The notes beneath the pieces are model-generated. The model did not search any database and had not been told where the DNA came from. It worked only from the letters and a program-made list of their open reading frames with translations. A program made the translations under genes and the position numbers. From Myxococcota bacterium (GTDB lineage: Bacteria; Myxococcota_A; UBA796; GCA-2862545): a DNA stretch of 64,000 nt. The DNA is taken from contig JBCCQY010000007.1 of assembly GCA_039208735.1 (NCBI GenBank), positions 40,841 through 104,840 of the forward strand. The letters are read 5' to 3'. Shown one piece after another: positions 21,670 through 49,169 of the stretch (its first letter is position 1; every line of letters begins with the position of its first letter).

Positions 21670-22359
21670 GTGCCACAACCACCGAATCCGAAGGCCCCCC
21701 ACAACCCACGGAACCGGCTTTCCCTCAATGATCTGCGCGCGGCGGCAAGGCTCGTCAACGCAGCTTTGGTGGGAATCGTAGGATTCTCTGGTTCGTGGGC
21801 GCACAACGCACGCAAGGACGCGAAGCAGGTTGCAAGAAATGCCCTCACCGGACTCTTTCGTCGGCAAAGCAACGCCGGACAGCCCCCTGCCGACCTCTGG
21901 TGCGTGAGCGGGGCCACCAATTTTGGGGTACCTGCCCTCGCCTATGAAGTTTCAACCGAACTCCACATTCCCCGGATCGGACTCACGGCAAGGGAAGCCC
22001 TCCGCTACAAACTTGCGGAACTCGATGTCCTCACGCTGGTCGGGCGGCGGTTTGGCGATGAATCACGCGCCTTCGTCGACCTTTGCGATGTGTTTTGGAT
22101 GATCGGCGGAGGGTCGCAGTCCGAGGCCGAGATGCGGCTTGCGGCGAAACGTGGCAAGCCCATCGTCGTGGTGCAGGGCTTAGGGGGTCGGGCGGACCAC
22201 ATGACGCTGACGGAGCTTCCTACCGCACAGTTCCTCGATTGCGATACCCTCGAGGTCAGGTCGCCGGATCGTGATCGAAAAACCTATCTTCGGGTCGCAG
22301 GGCAAGCTGCACGAGCCCTCCCTCACACCGCACCAGCCACGTCGGGACCCGTTTGTTGA
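21670..22359 (+). CDS. SLOG-superfamily (LOG/MoCo-carrier-like) nucleotide-binding protein
   Basis: VGIVGFSG, VSGATNFGVP, RFGDES, CDVFWMIGGGSQSEAE, GKPIVVVQGLGG match the SLOG Rossmannoid motif order. Confidence 0.7.
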   Translation: MPQPPNPKAPHNPRNRLSLNDLRAAARLVNAALVGIVGFSGSWAHNARKDAKQVARNALTGLFRRQSNAGQPPADLWCVSGATNFGVPALAYEVSTELHIPRIGLTAREALRYKLAELDVLTLVGRRFGDESRAFVDLCDVFWMIGGGSQSEAEMRLAAKRGKPIVVVQGLGGRADHMTLTELPTAQFLDCDTLEVRSPDRDRKTYLRVAGQAARALPHTAPATSGPVC

Positions 22360-23212
22360 CGAGTTCGGCATACAACCTGGTGCGTTTTTGGGGCCACAGC
22401 GAATCCAGTCTCCCTTGCTGGTTTGGTAGGTTCCAAACGCGTTCGGCCAACGCCATCCAAATCACGGGTCGGCCCGTTCCTGCGGTGAGGCGCCCCAGCT
22501 GCCGAAGGATGTCATGCGACCGCTGATACAGACGCACCGGACTACGCCCCTCGATTCGGATTTCGGTCTCGTCGTGGTGGCAGTGGACCTCGATGGGAGG
22601 CACCTCGGTGCGGGTCCCCGACATGCTCGCAGCCACTCGCGACCGGAGCATCAGGGTGACGTTGCGTCCATCCAGGACCACGGGCTCGCCAGGCTCCAGC
22701 TCCACGACGGGTCCCCCGGGTTCGCGCGCGTACCAAACGCCTTCCGCACCCCAGACGGCCGGCCAATCCGCCAGGTCTCCCGGCTGCAGTTCCCCATCCG
22801 CATCCAAATGCCACGCCAGGTGGTCCATCGGATGCTCCGGACCCTCATCGACCTTCAGCGTCGGCACCAGATCGGGAAGGCACAACTCGACCACGCGCAG
22901 CGCCACCCCAGGCGCAAACTCAATCCGCATGCCGCGGATTAGCTTGACGTCATCGCGTCGGGTTCCATCGACCCACACCCGACCTCGGTAGGCCAACAAC
23001 CAAAGCGCCCCCCCTCGCAAGCCAACCCCCGCGTGGGCCACCGAAATCGCGGGGTCCCTTAGCTGAAGGTCGGCGTACGGACCTCGTCCTACGACCGCCC
23101 CCAAACCCAGGGGCTGAATCTCACCGTCCGGCCCCTCGAAGGTCACACCGATGGACGGCGGGCCCCCTTCCCCAGCGCCCGACGCCGTAGCTGACGGAAT
23201 CGCACCTTCCAC
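22256..23212 (-). CDS. FHA domain protein with C-terminal winged-helix-like domain
   Basis: VGRGPYADLQLRDPAISVAHA FHA core; C-terminal ILRQL...LAERVW...RTRLYAEL. Confidence 0.8.
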   Translation of the reverse strand: MEGAIPSATASGAGEGGPPSIGVTFEGPDGEIQPLGLGAVVGRGPYADLQLRDPAISVAHAGVGLRGGALWLLAYRGRVWVDGTRRDDVKLIRGMRIEFAPGVALRVVELCLPDLVPTLKVDEGPEHPMDHLAWHLDADGELQPGDLADWPAVWGAEGVWYAREPGGPVVELEPGEPVVLDGRNVTLMLRSRVAASMSGTRTEVPPIEVHCHHDETEIRIEGRSPVRLYQRSHDILRQLGRLTAGTGRPVIWMALAERVWNLPNQQGRLDSLWPQKRTRLYAELVNKRVPTWLVRCEGGLVQLALRPEDRFFDHDPAT

Positions 23213-23318
23213 ATCCCCTCCAAGGCCCCGGATGCACCCCGGAGCCGCGTTCTTCTGACTTCACTGGGAGCAAGCTTCCAGCTGACTTTTCAAGCGCCAA
23301 TGGCGCAGGAGAACGCGC

Positions 23319-23753
23319 ATGCTCAAGTCTCATCACTTTGCCGCAGCCACCGCCGCCGCTGCCACGATGCTCGCGCCGCTCACCGCGCACGCCCTTGTCA
23401 TCATTTGGAACCCGGGTAAGCTCGAAGTCACGGTCGATGGCGCCTCGGAAGCAAGCATCGAAATCGATTCGTTGACCTACGTTCCTTGTGACGGCGCCGC
23501 GGTCACCGAAGAAGACTTCTCTGGGGACCTCGTCGCCGGCCTGCTGCTGGACCCGCCCAGCCCCGAGATCTGCTCGATGACGCTTACGCCGAGCGACGAC
23601 GTGGTCATCAGCGGCACCAACGGGAATGGCCCCTTCGAAATCACCGTGTCCGCTTCGGAGTTTTCTTTCGATGGCGAAGACCTCCCGAAGTCGCTGCCGT
23701 TCAACATCACGTTCGGGACGGTACCCGGCCCCGTGATGCTGAACGTCGAGTAA
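23319..23753 (+). CDS. Secreted hypothetical protein (NPG/two-Cys domain)
   Basis: Signal peptide ending AHA; RBS AGGAG; acidic beta-rich mature region. Confidence 0.7.
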   Translation: MLKSHHFAAATAAAATMLAPLTAHALVIIWNPGKLEVTVDGASEASIEIDSLTYVPCDGAAVTEEDFSGDLVAGLLLDPPSPEICSMTLTPSDDVVISGTNGNGPFEITVSASEFSFDGEDLPKSLPFNITFGTVPGPVMLNVE

Positions 23754-23754
23754 G

Positions 23755-24603
23755 TCACGGCGCCTCATCTTCGATGGTGCGGGGGTCTACCGCGTTGTCG
23801 GAGTAGAGGCTGATCGGAAAAAGCGCCAGGTTCAGATGAAAGACCCGGTTCGGGACTTCCTTCGCCGCCGAATACAACGTCGGTGCAAGGATTTCCTGCA
23901 ACCGGGACATGAGTTTCAGGTAGTCGTCTTCCGACAGCGCCAGGCTACCCGCCACATACAGACGGTCCGTTGGGGGAACTGTCTCGAGTGCGCGTTGGGC
24001 CATCGCCAACGTCTCGCGGTGGTACTCGGCCGCTCGGTTCGAGTCGTGGCCAGCGTCTACCTGACGTGCGGTGCCCAAATCGGGCGCGCCTTCGACCAAC
24101 CGGTAGTGCTCATCGAGCAACCCGTGCGCCACCAACTCGTCCATCGCGGCCTGCGCCTGCGCGTCGGTGAGGCGAGGACGCAGCGTCGCCGCCACCCAGC
24201 CCACCTCGGGCACATACTCTTCGCAGCGGGCGAGTTCGAGAATCGCGCCGAGATGCCAGTCACACAGACGGTTCTGTAGGGCATCAGCCGTGTTCTCCAC
24301 GGGCTCCGGCTTTTCAAGTCCACTCAACAGATCCTTCGCCCGGTCCCGAATCAGACTCGAGTTGCCGACTTCCCGCTCCACGAGCGTGAGAAACTCGACC
24401 CGCTGGCGGTCGGTCAGCTCAAGCCGCGTGGCGATTTGCTCGGCCAGCGCAGGCTGGAGGTTTCGACGTCCGTTGAGGATCTGGCTCAACCATGCCGGAG
24501 ACCGACCCACGGACCTGGCAAATTCGAACTGCTTGAGGTCCCGGTCGCGCATCAAACCCTGAAGGTAGTCCCGATAGCTGGCTCGCCGACTCGCCGTGTT
24601 CAT
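23755..24603 (-). CDS. TIGR02147-family protein (XRE-like HTH + DUF4423)
   Basis: SYRDYL...FARSVGRSPAWLSQILNGRRNL; W..GAILELA...WVAATLRPRLT; YH; VFHLNLALFPIS; RBS GGAGG. Confidence 0.88.
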   Translation of the reverse strand: MNTASRRASYRDYLQGLMRDRDLKQFEFARSVGRSPAWLSQILNGRRNLQPALAEQIATRLELTDRQRVEFLTLVEREVGNSSLIRDRAKDLLSGLEKPEPVENTADALQNRLCDWHLGAILELARCEEYVPEVGWVAATLRPRLTDAQAQAAMDELVAHGLLDEHYRLVEGAPDLGTARQVDAGHDSNRAAEYHRETLAMAQRALETVPPTDRLYVAGSLALSEDDYLKLMSRLQEILAPTLYSAAKEVPNRVFHLNLALFPISLYSDNAVDPRTIEDEAP

Positions 24604-24644
24604 CAGCCCTCCCGGTGCAAGGAAGGAACCTGAATACGCGAGAT

Positions 24645-27329
24645 TCACAACTCCGTGAATTCACGATACGTGAATGAATCGGGACCCAGCGGGTACACCC
24701 CCCGGAATCCGAGAAAGCCGTACCGCTCGAAGGTCCGCTCTCGGGGGCGACTCGTACTCCGTGCATTGCGGCCCCCGTACTGCCAAGTTCCGCCACGGAC
24801 AATCGCCATCTCTCCTTCGGAAACGGCCTCGGGAGGCAGCGCACGGCCGTGCTTGACCACCCCACCTGCGTCGAAGCACCAGTCGCGAACGTTTCCCCCC
24901 AAGCCCCGCACCCCATAGGGACTGATGTCGGTCTCGACGTACCGAGGGTCGTCGACGGGCACCGCACCGCGACGGCCGCGGTGACTCGAGAACATGCAGC
25001 ACCAAGCCGAATCGATGTGTTGGCCCCACGGATGGATGCGTCCATCCACGCCTCGGGCCGCCTTCTCCCATTCGAAGTCTCCGGGCAACCGCCACGGCTT
25101 GCCATCCTGGCGTTCGCGCCATCGAAGGTAGGCCATCGCAGACGACCAGTCGATGTTGGTTACCGGCCGGCGTGCCAAGGCTGGATCAGGGAGGGCGTAG
25201 CGACCGTCTCGAAGAACGAAGAGCGCGTCTCCCACGGCTTGACCAGCTTCGGTGCGCCGCCGCGGAACGTAGGCCTCGGCCTCCTCGGGCGAACAATCCT
25301 GAAGGAACGCAGCGTAGGCTCGGTTCGTGACGGGATCCCGCTGCATGACAAACCCTGAGACCCACACGCGGGCTGCGGGATGGTTGTTGTAGGCCTCGTC
25401 TTCGTCGCCTCCCGAATGAAACCAGCCCTCCGGAACGTAGATTTCGTCGTCGGCCAATGCATCGGCGGGCGGCAACCACACGGGCGGGGTGCGAGCGTCC
25501 CAGTGTCCCAACCGAGGGACTTCGACCGGATACCGAACCGTGGCGCGCCCCGGCGCTCGAATCACGAGGTGGTAGCTCCCCGTGGGCAGGACGTAGTTCT
25601 CGATGGGCTCAGAGCCGAAGTCACCCCGGTGCTCGAGCTGTAGGCGACGGTGCCGCTCCACGTACGCATAGAGTTGCACGCTCGCGCCGGGCGGGGTGGT
25701 CACAAGCGAAAGACGACCATTGCCTTGCAGGTAGGCATCCGCCCGTTTGCGCACCTTGTGCGTCGGGGGGAGGGCCTGCATATGAAGGCGCATGCCGCTT
25801 TCGGCCCGGACGCCATCTGCCGAATCGCGATGCTTCTCCGCCCGCTCGTGCCGAGCCATGTAGCGTTCGACGAGGGCCTCATGGGCTTCCTCAAGCATGG
25901 GAACGAGCTGCAGGGCGGCGTAGAACTCGCGCTGGGCCGCAACGGTCTCTTCGATGGCTTGTTGCTCGGCCTCCTCCGCGCGCCGTTCAAGCTCCCAGGC
26001 AGGCCAACGCGCCTCCTCGGGTTGCCACCCCTCGATTTGGGCGAGAATCCGTTCGCTGGATTCGCGAAACTCCCTGGCCAAGGCATTCGACGCTTCGATC
26101 TGCGGCTGGCGCTCGGTGGCTTGGCTCACGAGGCTCAACGCCTGTTCTCGAAGCCGCACCCCCTCGAGCCACTCCTGCATCGCATTGGTGAGGGCGTCTG
26201 CGGATTCAAAGCGCTCACCAGGCTCTCGGGCCATGGCACGATGGCAGATGCTCTTGAGGGCGAGCGGCACGCCATTGCGGTCCGACCCGCTGGGAGAGGT
26301 TCCTGGGTCGCTCGTCATGGTGAACGTGGCGCTCGAGTTGCGGGGGCCCGGATCCAGCCGTGGTGGGCCGTGCTTCACCTGTTCAACGATGCTTCGCCAA
26401 TCGGGACCTGAATACGGCAGGCGGTTCGACAAAATCAGGTAGAGCAGAACCCCCAACGTGTACACATCGCTGCGCTCATCGACCTTGTCGTGCTCCATCC
26501 GCGCCTGTTCGGGCGCAAGGTAGGGAGGACTCCCGATGATTCCCGCGGTTCGATGACTCCGTCCGTCATCCCCAAGACCCGTCGGCCAATGGCGAAGGTC
26601 GCCCTCTGTCGGGTCCGTCTCATGCCGCCGCCATCGAGCCACCCCCCAATCCAGCACGTAAGGTTGTTCGTGGCTGCCCAAACGGATGTTGCTCGCACTC
26701 AAGTCGCGGTGAACGACCCCTTGTTTGTGCGCGATCGCAACGGCGCGACACACGCCAAGGTACCCCCGCAACACCCTTTGAATCGCGGGCCACCCCCGAG
26801 TACCAGGCCCCCATTGCCCAGGTTGGACATGAACATGGGCTGCCTTCACCATGTGGTCGAAATCATGCCCTTCGATCAGCGGCATCGTAAACCAAGGTCG
26901 ACCATCCGTCAGTCGGCCTTGGTCGAACACCGTAGGAATGTTCGGATGATCGAGCGCAGCGAGAATGCGCCACTCGAGCTTAAAGCGAGAGATGAGGCGT
27001 GGCTTGTCGATGTGTTTGCGCAACAGCACCTTCATCGCCACATGCCGGTCGAAGACGGCATCGCGCACACGCCACACCTCACCCATGCCCCCTTCGCCGA
27101 TCTGGTCGACATAGTGGTAGCGTTCGGCGATCGACGTGACGTCGACGTAAAGGGCAACGAGTTCGTCGCAGAGTCGCGCATCGAGCTTAGACTTTCTCAG
27201 GTAGCTCTGGATAGGGCGTTCGGGATCGCCTCGAATCGAATCGAAGAGAACCTGGATCGACTTTGTGTAAGCCGGGTTCAGCCCTTGTTGTTCAACGAAG
27301 GACTCAATCCCCGGATGAACCTTGGCCAT
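24645..27329 (-). CDS. Ser/Thr protein kinase with C-terminal PEGA-like and FGE-sulfatase (SUMF1) domain
   Basis: GEGGMGEV, VAMK, HRDLSASN, DWG, YLAPEQ, DVYTLG; FGE motifs PVT, WRLP..EWEKAARG, GNVRDW, RGG, GFR. Confidence 0.93.
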   Translation of the reverse strand: MAKVHPGIESFVEQQGLNPAYTKSIQVLFDSIRGDPERPIQSYLRKSKLDARLCDELVALYVDVTSIAERYHYVDQIGEGGMGEVWRVRDAVFDRHVAMKVLLRKHIDKPRLISRFKLEWRILAALDHPNIPTVFDQGRLTDGRPWFTMPLIEGHDFDHMVKAAHVHVQPGQWGPGTRGWPAIQRVLRGYLGVCRAVAIAHKQGVVHRDLSASNIRLGSHEQPYVLDWGVARWRRHETDPTEGDLRHWPTGLGDDGRSHRTAGIIGSPPYLAPEQARMEHDKVDERSDVYTLGVLLYLILSNRLPYSGPDWRSIVEQVKHGPPRLDPGPRNSSATFTMTSDPGTSPSGSDRNGVPLALKSICHRAMAREPGERFESADALTNAMQEWLEGVRLREQALSLVSQATERQPQIEASNALAREFRESSERILAQIEGWQPEEARWPAWELERRAEEAEQQAIEETVAAQREFYAALQLVPMLEEAHEALVERYMARHERAEKHRDSADGVRAESGMRLHMQALPPTHKVRKRADAYLQGNGRLSLVTTPPGASVQLYAYVERHRRLQLEHRGDFGSEPIENYVLPTGSYHLVIRAPGRATVRYPVEVPRLGHWDARTPPVWLPPADALADDEIYVPEGWFHSGGDEDEAYNNHPAARVWVSGFVMQRDPVTNRAYAAFLQDCSPEEAEAYVPRRRTEAGQAVGDALFVLRDGRYALPDPALARRPVTNIDWSSAMAYLRWRERQDGKPWRLPGDFEWEKAARGVDGRIHPWGQHIDSAWCCMFSSHRGRRGAVPVDDPRYVETDISPYGVRGLGGNVRDWCFDAGGVVKHGRALPPEAVSEGEMAIVRGGTWQYGGRNARSTSRPRERTFERYGFLGFRGVYPLGPDSFTYREFTEL

Positions 27330-27341
27330 GGCTCCCCCCGC

Positions 27342-28028
27342 TCAGAGCTTGCCTGAGCGTGCCAACGCCACCAACTGAGCGATGATGATCGACGAAACCT
27401 CGGCTGCGTCTGTGGCATCAAACAAGCGCTGGCGACGAGCTGCGGGCAGACCGGTGTGGTCGTCCAACGTGCCACTGACAAGCTTAGGGACCAACTGGGC
27501 GCGACAGTATCCATCAAGCATGCCCGTCACGAACACGGGGGCTCGAGGGTTTGTGTCGCGGAAGATCTCCCATTCTTCCTCGAGCCCCGGAACCCCCCCG
27601 CCAACGTTACCGTGGGTGAGCCCCCCCATAAAGACGGCGGCCCGACTGCTCTTAGACATGGCTTGACGCATTTCACGCAAATCGTCGGCGAGGCCCGCAG
27701 GATCACTCGGCGCTGCCCCTTTTCCATACAGTTGCCGGTTCACGAAGACCGAGGTGTCGTGCGCTTCGTTGGGGGGCTTTTTATCAAAGCCCTTGGCGAG
27801 AACCAGATGCACCGCGCCGCGATCCAATCGGCCGCCATCGACCAAACGGTGCACCAATGGGGTCACCGTCGGGTGCCCGCCAAAGATGACTTCACCGCCA
27901 AGCCGCCCGACCTCAACGAACAGCCTTGAGACCAACGATTGAAGTTCCTGTGCTCGCGAGGTGCGATTCAGCTCTTGCGGCAAGGCTGCGGAAAATTGAA
28001 TCCGAATGCCATCCAGCGACTTGGTCAC
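27342..28028 (-). CDS. Stand-alone SLOG domain protein (SLOG cluster-3-like)
   Basis: FSAALP, VIFGGHPTVTPLV, LREMRQAM, AAVFMGG, GLEEEWEIF, PVF...GMLDG. Confidence 0.8.
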   Translation of the reverse strand: MTKSLDGIRIQFSAALPQELNRTSRAQELQSLVSRLFVEVGRLGGEVIFGGHPTVTPLVHRLVDGGRLDRGAVHLVLAKGFDKKPPNEAHDTSVFVNRQLYGKGAAPSDPAGLADDLREMRQAMSKSSRAAVFMGGLTHGNVGGGVPGLEEEWEIFRDTNPRAPVFVTGMLDGYCRAQLVPKLVSGTLDDHTGLPAARRQRLFDATDAAEVSSIIIAQLVALARSGKL

Positions 28029-29173
28029 GCCTGCTCCAGTAGCGTTCGCAATTGTTCTTCAAGCTGCGATATCGAACAAAAGCGCATTTCATGCTTGGCC
28101 GCCGCCCATGCCGCGGCCTCTCGTTCTTGCAACGTGGTGGTGTGTTCCTCAGTGCAAATCAAAAGCGGGGATCCGGCTGCCTCATCGACCCTTTGCCGAA
28201 CCTGATCCGCGTTGTACATCAGCTGGAATGAAGGGATGGCCGCATTCCAAACCAACTGGATGCGTCGCTGGTCTGCATCCACCAGACCGCTCCGTTCTCC
28301 TTCCACCCTCTCGTATTCGAAGGTCATGTCGCCCGACAGATGGCGCAACATCCGGTCGATCCGACGGTCGAAGACATCCCGGCGCCCCAACCCCGCATTG
28401 ACAAAGGAACGTACGCGGGTGTCCAAGCTCCGATCGCCCAGCATCCAATTCCAGTCCCGAGCCTGGGTTTCCAACCGCGCATTGGACTTTACACTGTGTG
28501 GAATCCAACCGTCCTTGCCGATCTGAAGGACCCGTACCGGAGCATGATTGGCCTGGGCAGCCGCGACTTCTCGCTGCACGAACTCCGACCCGACGAGCCC
28601 TGGCGTGCTGAGCAGCAGCAGGAAGTCCGTTTCGCGAATCGCTCGCATGAGGGCGGTGTACCAAGGCTCGCCCCCGACCAGATCCGTACGGTCCCGATAG
28701 ACCTGGAATCCACCAGCTTCGAGCCACCCTTGGACGCGATTTGCGTAGGCCTCCCCATCGTCTGCATTGTACGAAAGGAACAGACGCCGATGATGCCGGT
28801 GAGCCTTCAATCCCAGCTGAATCTGTACGGCTTCTTCAATGGCCTCAGGACTCGTCAAGCGAAGCATTTGCAGGGCATCGAAATCCGTCCAATCGCCTTC
28901 CAGATTGTAGTAGTCGTCGGGCTCCCCTTCGATGACGGGAATGATCGGAACGACCTTGAAGAGGGATCGAAATCGACGAGCCAGAGCCTGATCCTGCACC
29001 GATCCCTGCGTCATCACCAAGACGACCACCACATCGTGGAACGCTTTCAGCTCGGCTTCACCATCGTCGAGAACGACCTCAATCGGCGTTTTTCGAAGCC
29101 GTCGAGCCAGGTCGCTCCGCAACGCTTCGCCACGAGCATGTTCAGCATTCGAAGCGAGAATTCTGCATTCCAT
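28025..29173 (-). CDS. TIR domain protein (central TIR_2 with catalytic Glu; extra N- and C-terminal domains)
   Basis: LFLSY...VYRDRTDLVGGEPW...AIRETDFLLLLSTPGLVGSEFVQREV; GTGA overlap with the SLOG gene. Confidence 0.88.
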   Translation of the reverse strand: MECRILASNAEHARGEALRSDLARRLRKTPIEVVLDDGEAELKAFHDVVVVLVMTQGSVQDQALARRFRSLFKVVPIIPVIEGEPDDYYNLEGDWTDFDALQMLRLTSPEAIEEAVQIQLGLKAHRHHRRLFLSYNADDGEAYANRVQGWLEAGGFQVYRDRTDLVGGEPWYTALMRAIRETDFLLLLSTPGLVGSEFVQREVAAAQANHAPVRVLQIGKDGWIPHSVKSNARLETQARDWNWMLGDRSLDTRVRSFVNAGLGRRDVFDRRIDRMLRHLSGDMTFEYERVEGERSGLVDADQRRIQLVWNAAIPSFQLMYNADQVRQRVDEAAGSPLLICTEEHTTTLQEREAAAWAAAKHEMRFCSISQLEEQLRTLLEQA

Positions 29174-29370
29174 TCGTTCCCAACCCCAACGTTAATGGAC
29201 TATGGTACGGCTCACCTTACAGCAATGGTTCAACTGGATGGAGTTCACGATTGGTGAAGATCGAGGGGAGACCTCTTTGAATCCAATCGGCCGTGCTTCT
29301 GACAGAACCTCGACCGACCCTGACACACGAACCAGTCTCTCTAGGTCATGGTGGTCCCCAAGGAGGCGAC

Positions 29371-31318: not shown

Positions 31319-32647
31319 TCAAGGACGATTCGTTGCGAGGTTGCGCGCCCCTCCTTCGGACAGCTCGGCCCAGAACGCCCACGAATCCCCATCGTCTTCG
31401 GTGCGCGACACCACTTGCTCCCACACCCCAAACAACGCTCCGTTGTGTGCCACGATGGCATCGAGCGGCTTTTCGGGAATGGGGAACCACGACAGGCCAT
31501 CGGTGGAACGCCAACCGTCGAGGTCGCCCACGGCGACGTAGGCGGTGCCGCTCCAGGCGACCGATTGCAGCTTGCCTCCACCTTCGTCCACGAACGTCCA
31601 CACCAGTCCGTCGGTGCTTCGCCACCGCTCGCCCCCTTCGCCCACCGCCACGAAGCCGGGCGGCCCCCAGGTCAGGCCGAAGAACTCTGGCGCACCTGGA
31701 ATCGTGCCGAACGTCCATCTCTCGCCATCCGAAGAGACCCCGACCTCTTCATCGCTCAAGACCACGATGGTGTCTGGGGAGGCGGTCATGACTCGCCACA
31801 CCACCCCTTCCTGGGCACGAACCGTCCACGCTAGCCCATCGTCGGACGACAGCAAATCCCCACCGAAGCTCGCCGCAACAAACCGTCCATCGAATGCCGT
31901 CACGGTCGAGAGCACGGGCTCAGTATCGGTGAGTTCCCAGGTCAGCCCTTGATCGACCGAGGTTCCCGATCGACCGGACGCATCACCGCCCACCACCACC
32001 CAACGGCCGTTGGCGTAGGCTGCCGCGCCAAAGAACCCGGCTGCCTCGGTCTGGAGGTAGGTCGGCGCCGGAGGCGTGGTCACGCTGGCTCGCAGTCCCG
32101 GATCCCCCACCACGAGCAATACGGGAGGCTCAGGATTGTCGGGCGCACGGTCCGCACCCCGGCCTGCAGCGCCTTGGGCCCGTTCGAGCAGGTCGAGTTG
32201 CCCGTCTGCCTCGATCTCTCGGTAGACCCCCGAACGTCGAGCAAGCCCTTCCACGTCGCCCGGCTCGCCAAGCTCGATGATCCAGCGTTCCCGAGCGAAC
32301 ACCACCCCGCGAATGTCGATCGTAGCGGTTGCTTCGTCGATCTCCGTGAGCGTCTCCCCAGCCGCCCGAAGGTTTTGCAATCCCACGTCCAGGGTGCACC
32401 ATTGTCCGTCAGGAATGCGGAAGGCTGCGCCCTCGAGCAGGTCTTCCTCCACAATCACCGAGCCCGCTTCGCCCTCGCAGCTCGTAAAGGTCGCGGAAAC
32501 CCTGCGGGCGGTCGCAACCTCCCAGACGCTCCCTTCCGTATCTGGGGGGGCAATCCGCACCGACGCCGTGCCGGGATTTCCGACCGCGGTACCCCCTCCT
32601 TCGCGCCACAGCCCACAACCCACGAGCAACAGCAATCCGAGCATCAC
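31319..32647 (-). CDS. Lipoprotein with N-terminal NPG/two-Cys domain and BNR/Asp-box propeller
   Basis: Lipobox LVGC; repeats SVDQGLTW, SSDDGLAW, SSDGERW, STDGLVW, STDGLSW. Confidence 0.8.
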   Translation of the reverse strand: MMLGLLLLVGCGLWREGGGTAVGNPGTASVRIAPPDTEGSVWEVATARRVSATFTSCEGEAGSVIVEEDLLEGAAFRIPDGQWCTLDVGLQNLRAAGETLTEIDEATATIDIRGVVFARERWIIELGEPGDVEGLARRSGVYREIEADGQLDLLERAQGAAGRGADRAPDNPEPPVLLVVGDPGLRASVTTPPAPTYLQTEAAGFFGAAAYANGRWVVVGGDASGRSGTSVDQGLTWELTDTEPVLSTVTAFDGRFVAASFGGDLLSSDDGLAWTVRAQEGVVWRVMTASPDTIVVLSDEEVGVSSDGERWTFGTIPGAPEFFGLTWGPPGFVAVGEGGERWRSTDGLVWTFVDEGGGKLQSVAWSGTAYVAVGDLDGWRSTDGLSWFPIPEKPLDAIVAHNGALFGVWEQVVSRTEDDGDSWAFWAELSEGGARNLATNRP

Positions 32648-33498
32648 GTGCCTCCCTCGTCCTCACCCGGCGTGGACAACGGAAAGAAGTTTAGGTTGAA
32701 CTGGAAGACCTGGCCCGCGGGGGGCTCTGCGTTCGCACAGAGTTCGAGGATGCGCTCTTGGAAGGCATTGAACTCGTCTTTCAAGGTCGGCACAAGCGAC
32801 GGTGGTGCACTGACGGTGACCGCGAGGAAGTGTCGTTCCTGGGGTTGCACATCGGACAAGGCCTGCTTGGCGCGCTCCAGCATGCCCTGATGGTAGTTGT
32901 AGGCGGCAAGGCCCGCGAGTTCGTGGGGCGTGACGACGCTGCCCCCGCCGTGGCTCACCCGTCCATCGTCATGGCGCACCAATAACTCAAGTTCGAACAG
33001 TAGATCCAGGGCTTGGCGCGCCTGGCGGGCGGTGATGCGAGGCCGGATCTGTCTTGCTACCCATGCGGGATCGTCGCGAAACGAATCGCGATTGGCCAGT
33101 TCCCGAATCGCAGGGTGAATCCAGTTCGACAGGTAGCGAACGCTATCGCCTTCGATGCGACGAGCCTCACGGAATCGTCGACTGGCCATGATGTCGACCC
33201 ACACCGCGTTCTTTTCGGTGGGTGTCTCGGCCTGATCGAGCTGCACAAGCAGCCGAAAGAACCGGGCTTCGGTGGAACCTAGCGAAAGCGCCTTCTGAAA
33301 TCCCTCGATTCCCGCCTGGGTCAGGTTGCGACGCCCCGCGATCACATCCGAGAGCAGCGACGGCGAGCGCTGGCCGGTTCGCGCCACGAAGGCCCGATGG
33401 CTGAATTTTGGATTCGCTACCTTCTTAGCATCGAACCACTCGGACAAGTACGCCCGGTAGTCCAGAAACGCGAACACGCTGGGAAGATCGTCGGCCAC
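32644..33498 (-). CDS. TIGR02147-family protein (HTH + DUF4423)
   Basis: VFAFLDYRAYL...NPKFSHRAF...SPSLL...GRRNLT; W.HPAIREL; YHQ; VFQFNLNFFPLS. Confidence 0.92.
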   Translation of the reverse strand: MADDLPSVFAFLDYRAYLSEWFDAKKVANPKFSHRAFVARTGQRSPSLLSDVIAGRRNLTQAGIEGFQKALSLGSTEARFFRLLVQLDQAETPTEKNAVWVDIMASRRFREARRIEGDSVRYLSNWIHPAIRELANRDSFRDDPAWVARQIRPRITARQARQALDLLFELELLVRHDDGRVSHGGGSVVTPHELAGLAAYNYHQGMLERAKQALSDVQPQERHFLAVTVSAPPSLVPTLKDEFNAFQERILELCANAEPPAGQVFQFNLNFFPLSTPGEDEGGT

Positions 33499-48499: not shown

Positions 48500-48862
48500 C
48501 CAGGAGGGGTGATTGTCAAGAGGGGAGACTGATAACTTGGGGATGAGCTGTGGATACCCTGCGGATGAGCTGGGGACAGTCATGCCGCACTTGGGAGAAG
48601 GAGATCGTAGAGCTTGGCCGGCGGCTGGTCGCCGAGGGACTGGTGCGGCCGTTCGTGGTTGTAGAAGCGGAAGTAGGCGCGGAGCCGGTCGCGAGCCTCA
48701 CCCAGGTCGTCGTAGGCGTGCAGGTAGATCTCCTCGTACTTGACCGATCTCCAGAGCCGCTCGATGAAGACGTTGTCGAGCCAGCGACCGCGGCCGTCCA
48801 TGCTGATCGCGATGTCTCGGGACTTCAGGATGCCGGTGAAGTCGGACGAGGTGAACTGCGAA
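48500..48862 (-). mobile_element. IS3-family transposase C-terminal fragment with probable downstream IS-end sequence
   Basis: SQFTS...ISMDGRGRWLDNVFIERLWRSVKYEEIY...YNHERPHQSL; N-terminal part missing. Confidence 0.88.
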
Positions 48863-48872
48863 TTCGATCGCC

Positions 48873-49169
48873 TCATTCCTCAACGGCCTGCCGAATCCAC
48901 ACGATCTTCGGCGGACCTCGTAGGAAGGGTCGCAGCCGCTCCATGGACCCCGTCTCCCGCCGCCAGGCTGTGTAGGCGTGGAAGTGTTCGCGGGTCTCCC
49001 ACCCGAGCACGGTCCACAGGGCACCATCATCGTCTTGGGGAATCCAGACCGCGGCGTAGGTACAGCCCGGATACGCGCGTGTCTCTCGAAGGATGTCGTG
49101 GGTGATGGCGATAAGCTCCCTGCGTGTCTCGGGCTCCACGGTCATCTGCAGTACGACCCTCTCAGCCAT
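48873..49169 (-). CDS. Antibiotic biosynthesis monooxygenase (ABM) family protein
   Basis: TRAYPGC...WETREHFHAYTAWRRETG. Confidence 0.85.
   Translation of the reverse strand: MAERVVLQMTVEPETRRELIAITHDILRETRAYPGCTYAAVWIPQDDDGALWTVLGWETREHFHAYTAWRRETGSMERLRPFLRGPPKIVWIRQAVEE

Follow-up and report, generated by a model that had tools for sequence, protein, structure and literature searches.

Here we describe two adjacent genes, encoding a TIR protein and a stand-alone SLOG protein, in a Myxococcota bacterium. They lie within a 64,000-nucleotide stretch of contig JBCCQY010000007.1 (assembly GCA_039208735.1), which we call the window; coordinates are window positions unless a contig (C) or locus (L) label precedes them. 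The pair heads a run of four open reading frames between 23755 and 29173, all on the minus strand and in the order TIR, SLOG, kinase-FGE, TIGR02147:

28025-29173, minus strand: ThcB4-like TIR protein, 382 amino acids (Pfam TIR_2, E 1.5e-14)
27342-28028, minus strand: ThcA-like stand-alone SLOG protein (cluster 3/2), 228 amino acids (Pfam LD_cluster3, E 6.3e-13)
24645-27329, minus strand: Ser/Thr kinase-FGE protein, likely of the host, 894 amino acids (Pfam Pkinase and FGE-sulfatase)
23755-24648, minus strand: TIGR02147 helix-turn-helix protein (Pfam DUF4423/HTH_31; TIGR02147 77.2 bits, cut-off 50)

The SLOG gene starts at a GTG that overlaps the TIR stop codon as GTGA, and it ends 12 bp before the kinase gene, in a gap that contains a purine-rich run resembling a ribosome binding site; the TIGR02147 gene starts either at a GTG overlapping the kinase stop codon or at an ATG at 24603, 41 bp past it. 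An initial annotation had described four co-directional genes with this overlap and this gap, and a TIGR02147 gene within ~40 bp of the kinase; the coordinates agree on each point, and Pfam searches of each reading frame, which it had suggested, return the expected families (TIR_2, SLOG cluster 3/2, Pkinase with FGE, DUF4423/HTH). A contig from sequencing run X1 spans 26650-29318, including the TIR-SLOG-kinase junctions, with 0 differences; X1 is possibly the source sample and not independent, and on that footing there is no obvious sign of misassembly at the SLOG-kinase junction. The pair had also looked more AT-rich than its flanks, and guanine-plus-cytosine (GC) content bears this out—among 5703 called genes of at least 200 amino acids, the TIR gene (58.1%) stands at the 1.6th percentile and the SLOG gene (60.6%) at the 8.1th, against the 37.5th for the host-like kinase gene (63.3%) and the 29.9th for the TIGR02147 gene (62.8%). 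This SLOG was not found in 48 genomes of the same family, four of the same genus included. The TIR-SLOG module was likely acquired horizontally.

Type III Thoeris, composed of ThcA and ThcB TIR proteins, was reportedly described by van den Berg et al. in 2024. Two preprints present it as several TIR proteins with a SLOG-only protein, with signalling that is uncharacterised, no sign of abortive infection in its phenotype and NucS as a hypothesised effector (10.64898/2025.12.03.692087; 10.64898/2026.01.22.701046); further literature comprises two reviews (PMC13276650, PMC13434031) and a preprint (10.1101/2025.02.20.638879). A SLOG that stands alone defines type III Thoeris and is no anomaly. The initial annotation had taken the pair for a Thoeris-like unit, and it does map onto type III, with a stand-alone SLOG directly behind a ~380-residue TIR protein that ends in a nuclease-fold domain. 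The sole NCBIfam matches of the pair are to the type III models (NF058525, NF058526), both under the equivalog cut-offs: 66.7 bits to ThcB4 for the TIR protein (cut-off 220) and 49.9 bits to ThcA for the SLOG protein (cut-off 110). PADLOC 2.0, another suggested check, returned generic TIR matches for the TIR protein and nothing for SLOG. In Pfam the SLOG protein matches SLOG families alone; its SLOG motif residues are kept, and hhalign gives 99.4% between it and a ThcA that passes the NCBIfam cut-off.

A quick, midpoint-rooted tree of 127 SLOG domains splits into two groups (Shimodaira-Hasegawa-like approximate likelihood ratio test, SH-aLRT, 95), with the window pair in the divergent group beside the true type III members. 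Among 51 proteins chosen by hand, most of those tested from the canonical group pass the ThcA and ThcB4 cut-offs, and all of those tested from the window's group fail them. Profiles of the two groups match domain by domain and in order (N-terminal 95.9%, TIR 99.9%, C-terminal 82.4%), so that homology extends over every domain and the gene order. Judged from these comparisons, the pair is predicted to work like type III Thoeris and is homologous to it throughout; we stop short of counting it as a strict member, because it falls under the cut-offs and lacks the extra TIR genes—one TIR gene stands in place of several, and a host kinase follows. With type I Thoeris (ThsB plus a SIR2-SLOG ThsA) the pair shares a TIR with a catalytic Glu and a SLOG that aligns weakly to the ThsA SLOG (8wc0, E 0.008); it differs in having no SIR2 fused or adjacent, a SLOG of cluster 3/2 and not STALD, and a multidomain TIR protein. 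Pfam found no SIR2 domain in the SLOG protein, and contig C7 carries a single TIR_2 match and no ThsB_TIR match.

The TIR protein consists of a TIR-like N-terminal domain (1-123), a TIR domain (128-262), a long helix and a C-terminal domain (~263-382) with a PD-(D/E)xK (NucS-like) nuclease fold. The catalytic Glu noted initially is Glu202, a position at which 67 of 68 aligned homologues have E. The statement that no effector lies adjacent holds for SIR2, absent from the SLOG protein and its vicinity, and overlooks the nuclease-fold domain of the TIR protein itself. Among 67 sequences this domain has no nearly invariant column, and in the window the expected D and (D/E)xK positions, mapped by strand order and motif and not by residue-level superposition, are S/R and V-W-N; its catalytic triad is apparently lost.

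The linkage of TIR to SLOG is well conserved. With a 38-sequence SLOG alignment we gathered 121 related loci, of which 41 come from genomes and 80 are the best of 364 confirmed loci from metagenomes; the counts include duplicates such as L021/L085. The same multidomain TIR is adjacent or fused in 80 of the 93 loci with at least 1.3 kb upstream, and 24 of 139 SLOG homologues carry part of a ThcB4-like protein. The kinase shows no such linkage: a co-directional kinase lies within 1 kb downstream in one of the 81 loci with at least 1.5 kb downstream (L080), and that kinase is 24% identical to the window's, with the match confined to the kinase domain. In none of the 121 related loci is there a kinase-FGE, TIGR02147 or FHA gene near the pair, and none of the 139 homologues is a SLOG-kinase fusion. 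Of the neighbourhood whose conservation the initial annotation proposed to check, the TIR-SLOG part is conserved and the kinase part is not. Its author had allowed that the kinase adjacency might be incidental, that kinases might not co-occur with such pairs, and that the pair might map onto a described system; kinases are indeed rarely found with them, and this pair does correspond to type III, though under the curated cut-offs. Single SLOG fusions to EF-G (P0144) and to alpha-amylase (P0021, P0046) were also seen, which may be read-through products.

The genome itself offers the kinase other company. The window kinase is one of 10 kinase-FGE paralogues and is 46% identical over 890 amino acids to C87:1951-4620; none of the other nine stands beside a TIR-SLOG pair, and an FHA gene flanks three of the nine in hidden Markov model searches. 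Three further genes lie beyond the four-gene run:

23319-23753, plus strand: small putatively secreted protein, partner of TIGR02147 (signal peptide judged by eye)
22256-23212, minus strand: FHA-domain protein (Pfam FHA E 0.0017, under cut-off)
21670-22359, plus strand: second, different SLOG of LSDAT/cluster 4 type (Pfam LSDAT_prok E 6e-06)

The SLOG(LSDAT)-FHA-kinase trio found at window 21670-27329 recurs on contig C87 with 55% (the LSDAT SLOG, to C87:250-882), 39% (the FHA gene, to one divergent from the C87 kinase) and 46% identity, and the FHA gene at 22256-23212 is likely the native partner of the kinase. Relative to C87 the window kinase is inverted, with two genes between it and the FHA gene. 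If the block of secreted gene, TIGR02147 gene and kinase (~23300-27335) were inverted, the gene order would match that of C87, and the SLOG-kinase junction would then mark a point of rearrangement; no signal of a breakpoint turned up at this putative inversion. Eight of 19 same-genus kinase matches were fetched, and none has a TIR-SLOG pair, two have an FHA gene and two lie on short contigs. Kinase adjacency is not rare in this genome: of 7835 called genes 159 encode kinases, and for 94 of 7538 genes the next one is a co-directional kinase. The kinase domain also matches models of kinase defence systems (PD-T4-6, Stk2, MADS Mad6, BREX PglW), though through the generic kinase domain only and far under the NCBIfam cut-offs (Mad6 121/460, PglW 41/990); the FGE domain and the paralogue family point instead to host signalling. 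Apart from its inversion, its separation from the FHA gene and the TIR-SLOG pair directly upstream, the kinase resembles the kinase-FGE modules with FHA or ECF sigma genes of this lineage; it is likely a host gene and not part of the TIR-SLOG system.

The LSDAT/cluster-4 SLOG overlaps its FHA gene tail-to-tail near a kinase-FGE twice in the genome (window 21670-23212; C87:250-4620). It was not found in four same-genus genomes, and it has three strong homologues in the order, one of which (L148) has a different kinase ~0.56 kb downstream.

The TIGR02147 gene has a partner of its own. Its closest paralogue (C34, 56%) also lies tail-to-tail with a homologue of the secreted protein; such homologues occur at C34 (E 1.6e-22) and C37 (E 1.3e-4), each adjoining a TIGR02147 gene, and only one of the genome's 16 TIGR02147 genes stands beside a kinase. 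Going by these neighbourhoods, the TIGR02147 gene belongs with the convergent secreted gene at 23319-23753 and not with TIR-SLOG. A second TIGR02147-type gene (32644-33498) is followed by a putative lipoprotein (31319-32647) with a short N-terminal motif similar to the secreted partners elsewhere in the genome, and a short open reading frame at 48580-48876 resembles, by eye, an IS3-type transposase fragment.

Given the lack of kinase recurrence, the FHA partnering and the pairing of TIGR02147 with the secreted gene, the four-gene "operon" is best read as three modules side by side. We consider it probable that TIR-SLOG is a two-gene module of a divergent type III Thoeris-like clade and that the adjacent kinase is incidental; the module is likely anti-phage. 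Several observations weigh against this reading. Both proteins fall far short of the curated cut-offs, and no additional ThcB-type TIR gene lies in the operon. A kinase promoter would find no intergenic space in the 12-bp gap, which makes co-transcription likely. The nearest four SLOG relatives (P0010-P0013, 40-56%) come without genomic context, so that the window's own subclade lies outside the survey. Kinases occur in the flanks of five distinct loci, all in the window's broad clade, and in none of 66 canonical loci; in a subclade that includes a Nannocystis metagenome-assembled genome, a kinase adjoins the cluster in four of six loci and a sigma-factor gene is present in three, two of them confirmed by NCBIfam. 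At L145, a weak SLOG match (E 5e-8) lies in a 1689-residue protein convergent with a kinase-FGE. The loci of the Nannocystis subclade come from related genomes, and their kinases differ from the window's (24-30% identity, kinase domain only).

At L034, L078, L080 and L082, multi-TIR clusters with ThcB4-ThcA (fused in three) have a kinase as neighbour, and three of them also an ECF-type sigma gene; these clusters may possibly form a regulatory module in the Nannocystis-related clade. The genome described here (G000) is itself rich in TIRs and kinases, with 30 TIR_2 matches and 159 Hanks-type kinase genes. It holds a second pair of TIR (393 amino acids) and SLOG (236 amino acids) at G000:C204:7249-9165, where the SLOG passes the ThcA cut-off (116.3/110), the TIR falls under that for ThcB4 (125/220), and no kinase adjoins.

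For the mechanism of the TIR-SLOG module, we offer a set of steps that is tentative as a whole. On detecting a phage cue, perhaps by way of its nuclease-fold domain, which looks catalytically degenerate, the TIR protein would form oligomers and convert NAD+ into a signal derived from ADP-ribose; SLOG would bind this signal and act back on the TIR protein, switching on or tuning its output. This last step is proposed because SLOG and TIR are often fused.

The main mechanistic rival, which we find doubtful, is that the effectors are separate and the module produces or handles a signal for them: SLOG would degrade or convert the TIR product in the manner of LOG-family hydrolases, interchangeable effectors would kill in cis or in trans, and the kinase would again be incidental. 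The commonest third gene noted near the pair encodes a membrane protein of ~135 residues that matches PADLOC PDC-M50A (for example, L014:3492-3896) and lies in the flanks of 30 of the 121 loci; a SIR2 follows SLOG in two loci and a CBASS-type phospholipase in one, and the nuclease-fold domain lacks a nearly invariant column. This genome also holds candidate trans genes, both unlinked: a PDC-M50A-like gene (C5:60482-60916) and its only SIR2_2 match (C159). However, the other 91 loci, many on short contigs, show no PDC-M50A-type gene, and the trans genes of this genome have no TIR alongside. One preprint, moreover, assigns the effector role in type III to the SLOG protein (10.64898/2025.12.03.692087). 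At L014, L016, L018 and L076, a PDC-M50A-type gene accompanies SLOG with no ThcB4-like TIR upstream.

It is improbable that the pair is what remains of a larger type III cluster in decay, stripped of its extra TIR genes and of its defensive role. No additional TIR gene adjoins it, against one in 25 of the 121 related loci; its C-terminal domain differs from the consensus of its clade at several sites (V308 and N310, where 14/23 and 15/23 sequences have E); and no defence island was found around it. Against decay, neither reading frame is broken, Glu202 and the residues of the SLOG motif persist, related strains (runs X2-X4) carry pieces of both genes at ~97-99% identity with no listed indels, and the two-gene form is the commonest layout among the related loci.

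Least probable is the relay first proposed, in which SLOG would respond to the TIR product by activating the neighbouring kinase, and the kinase would pass the signal on to transcription: tight co-directional spacing, intact kinase motifs (Gly loop, VAMK Lys, HRD, DWG, APE), kinases near five related clusters and a SLOG-sigma-54 activator fusion in one Acidobacteriota-linked subclade (L058, P0019) speak for it, and the failure of the kinase-FGE to recur, its host-like GC, its FHA-partnered paralogues and the separate partner of TIGR02147 speak against it. ThcA-like SLOGs fused to receiver and/or sigma-54 activator domains do occur behind a ThcB4-like TIR (L058:6980-8908, P0019, L010). It is likewise very unlikely that TIR-SLOG is wired into host phosphorylation, with a shared transcript and a SLOG-sensed ADP-ribose signal driving the kinase-FGE and the nearby FHA regulator reading phospho-threonine. 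If true, such wiring would give TIR signalling a non-lethal, transcriptional output, an idea echoed by the kinase and ECF sigma genes beside Nannocystis-type clusters and by the SLOG-sigma-54 fusions; a kinase-output Thoeris would be of great importance, but the evidence points the other way.

Read as a divergent Thoeris-like module, the pair probably represents a sister clade of type III Thoeris, in minimal two-gene form, that the NCBIfam models miss. Across both clades the proposed nuclease-effector domain keeps its fold without conserved catalytic residues—this would provide a simple test of the NucS-effector hypothesis, and the two genes may serve as a compact construct for finding the signal.
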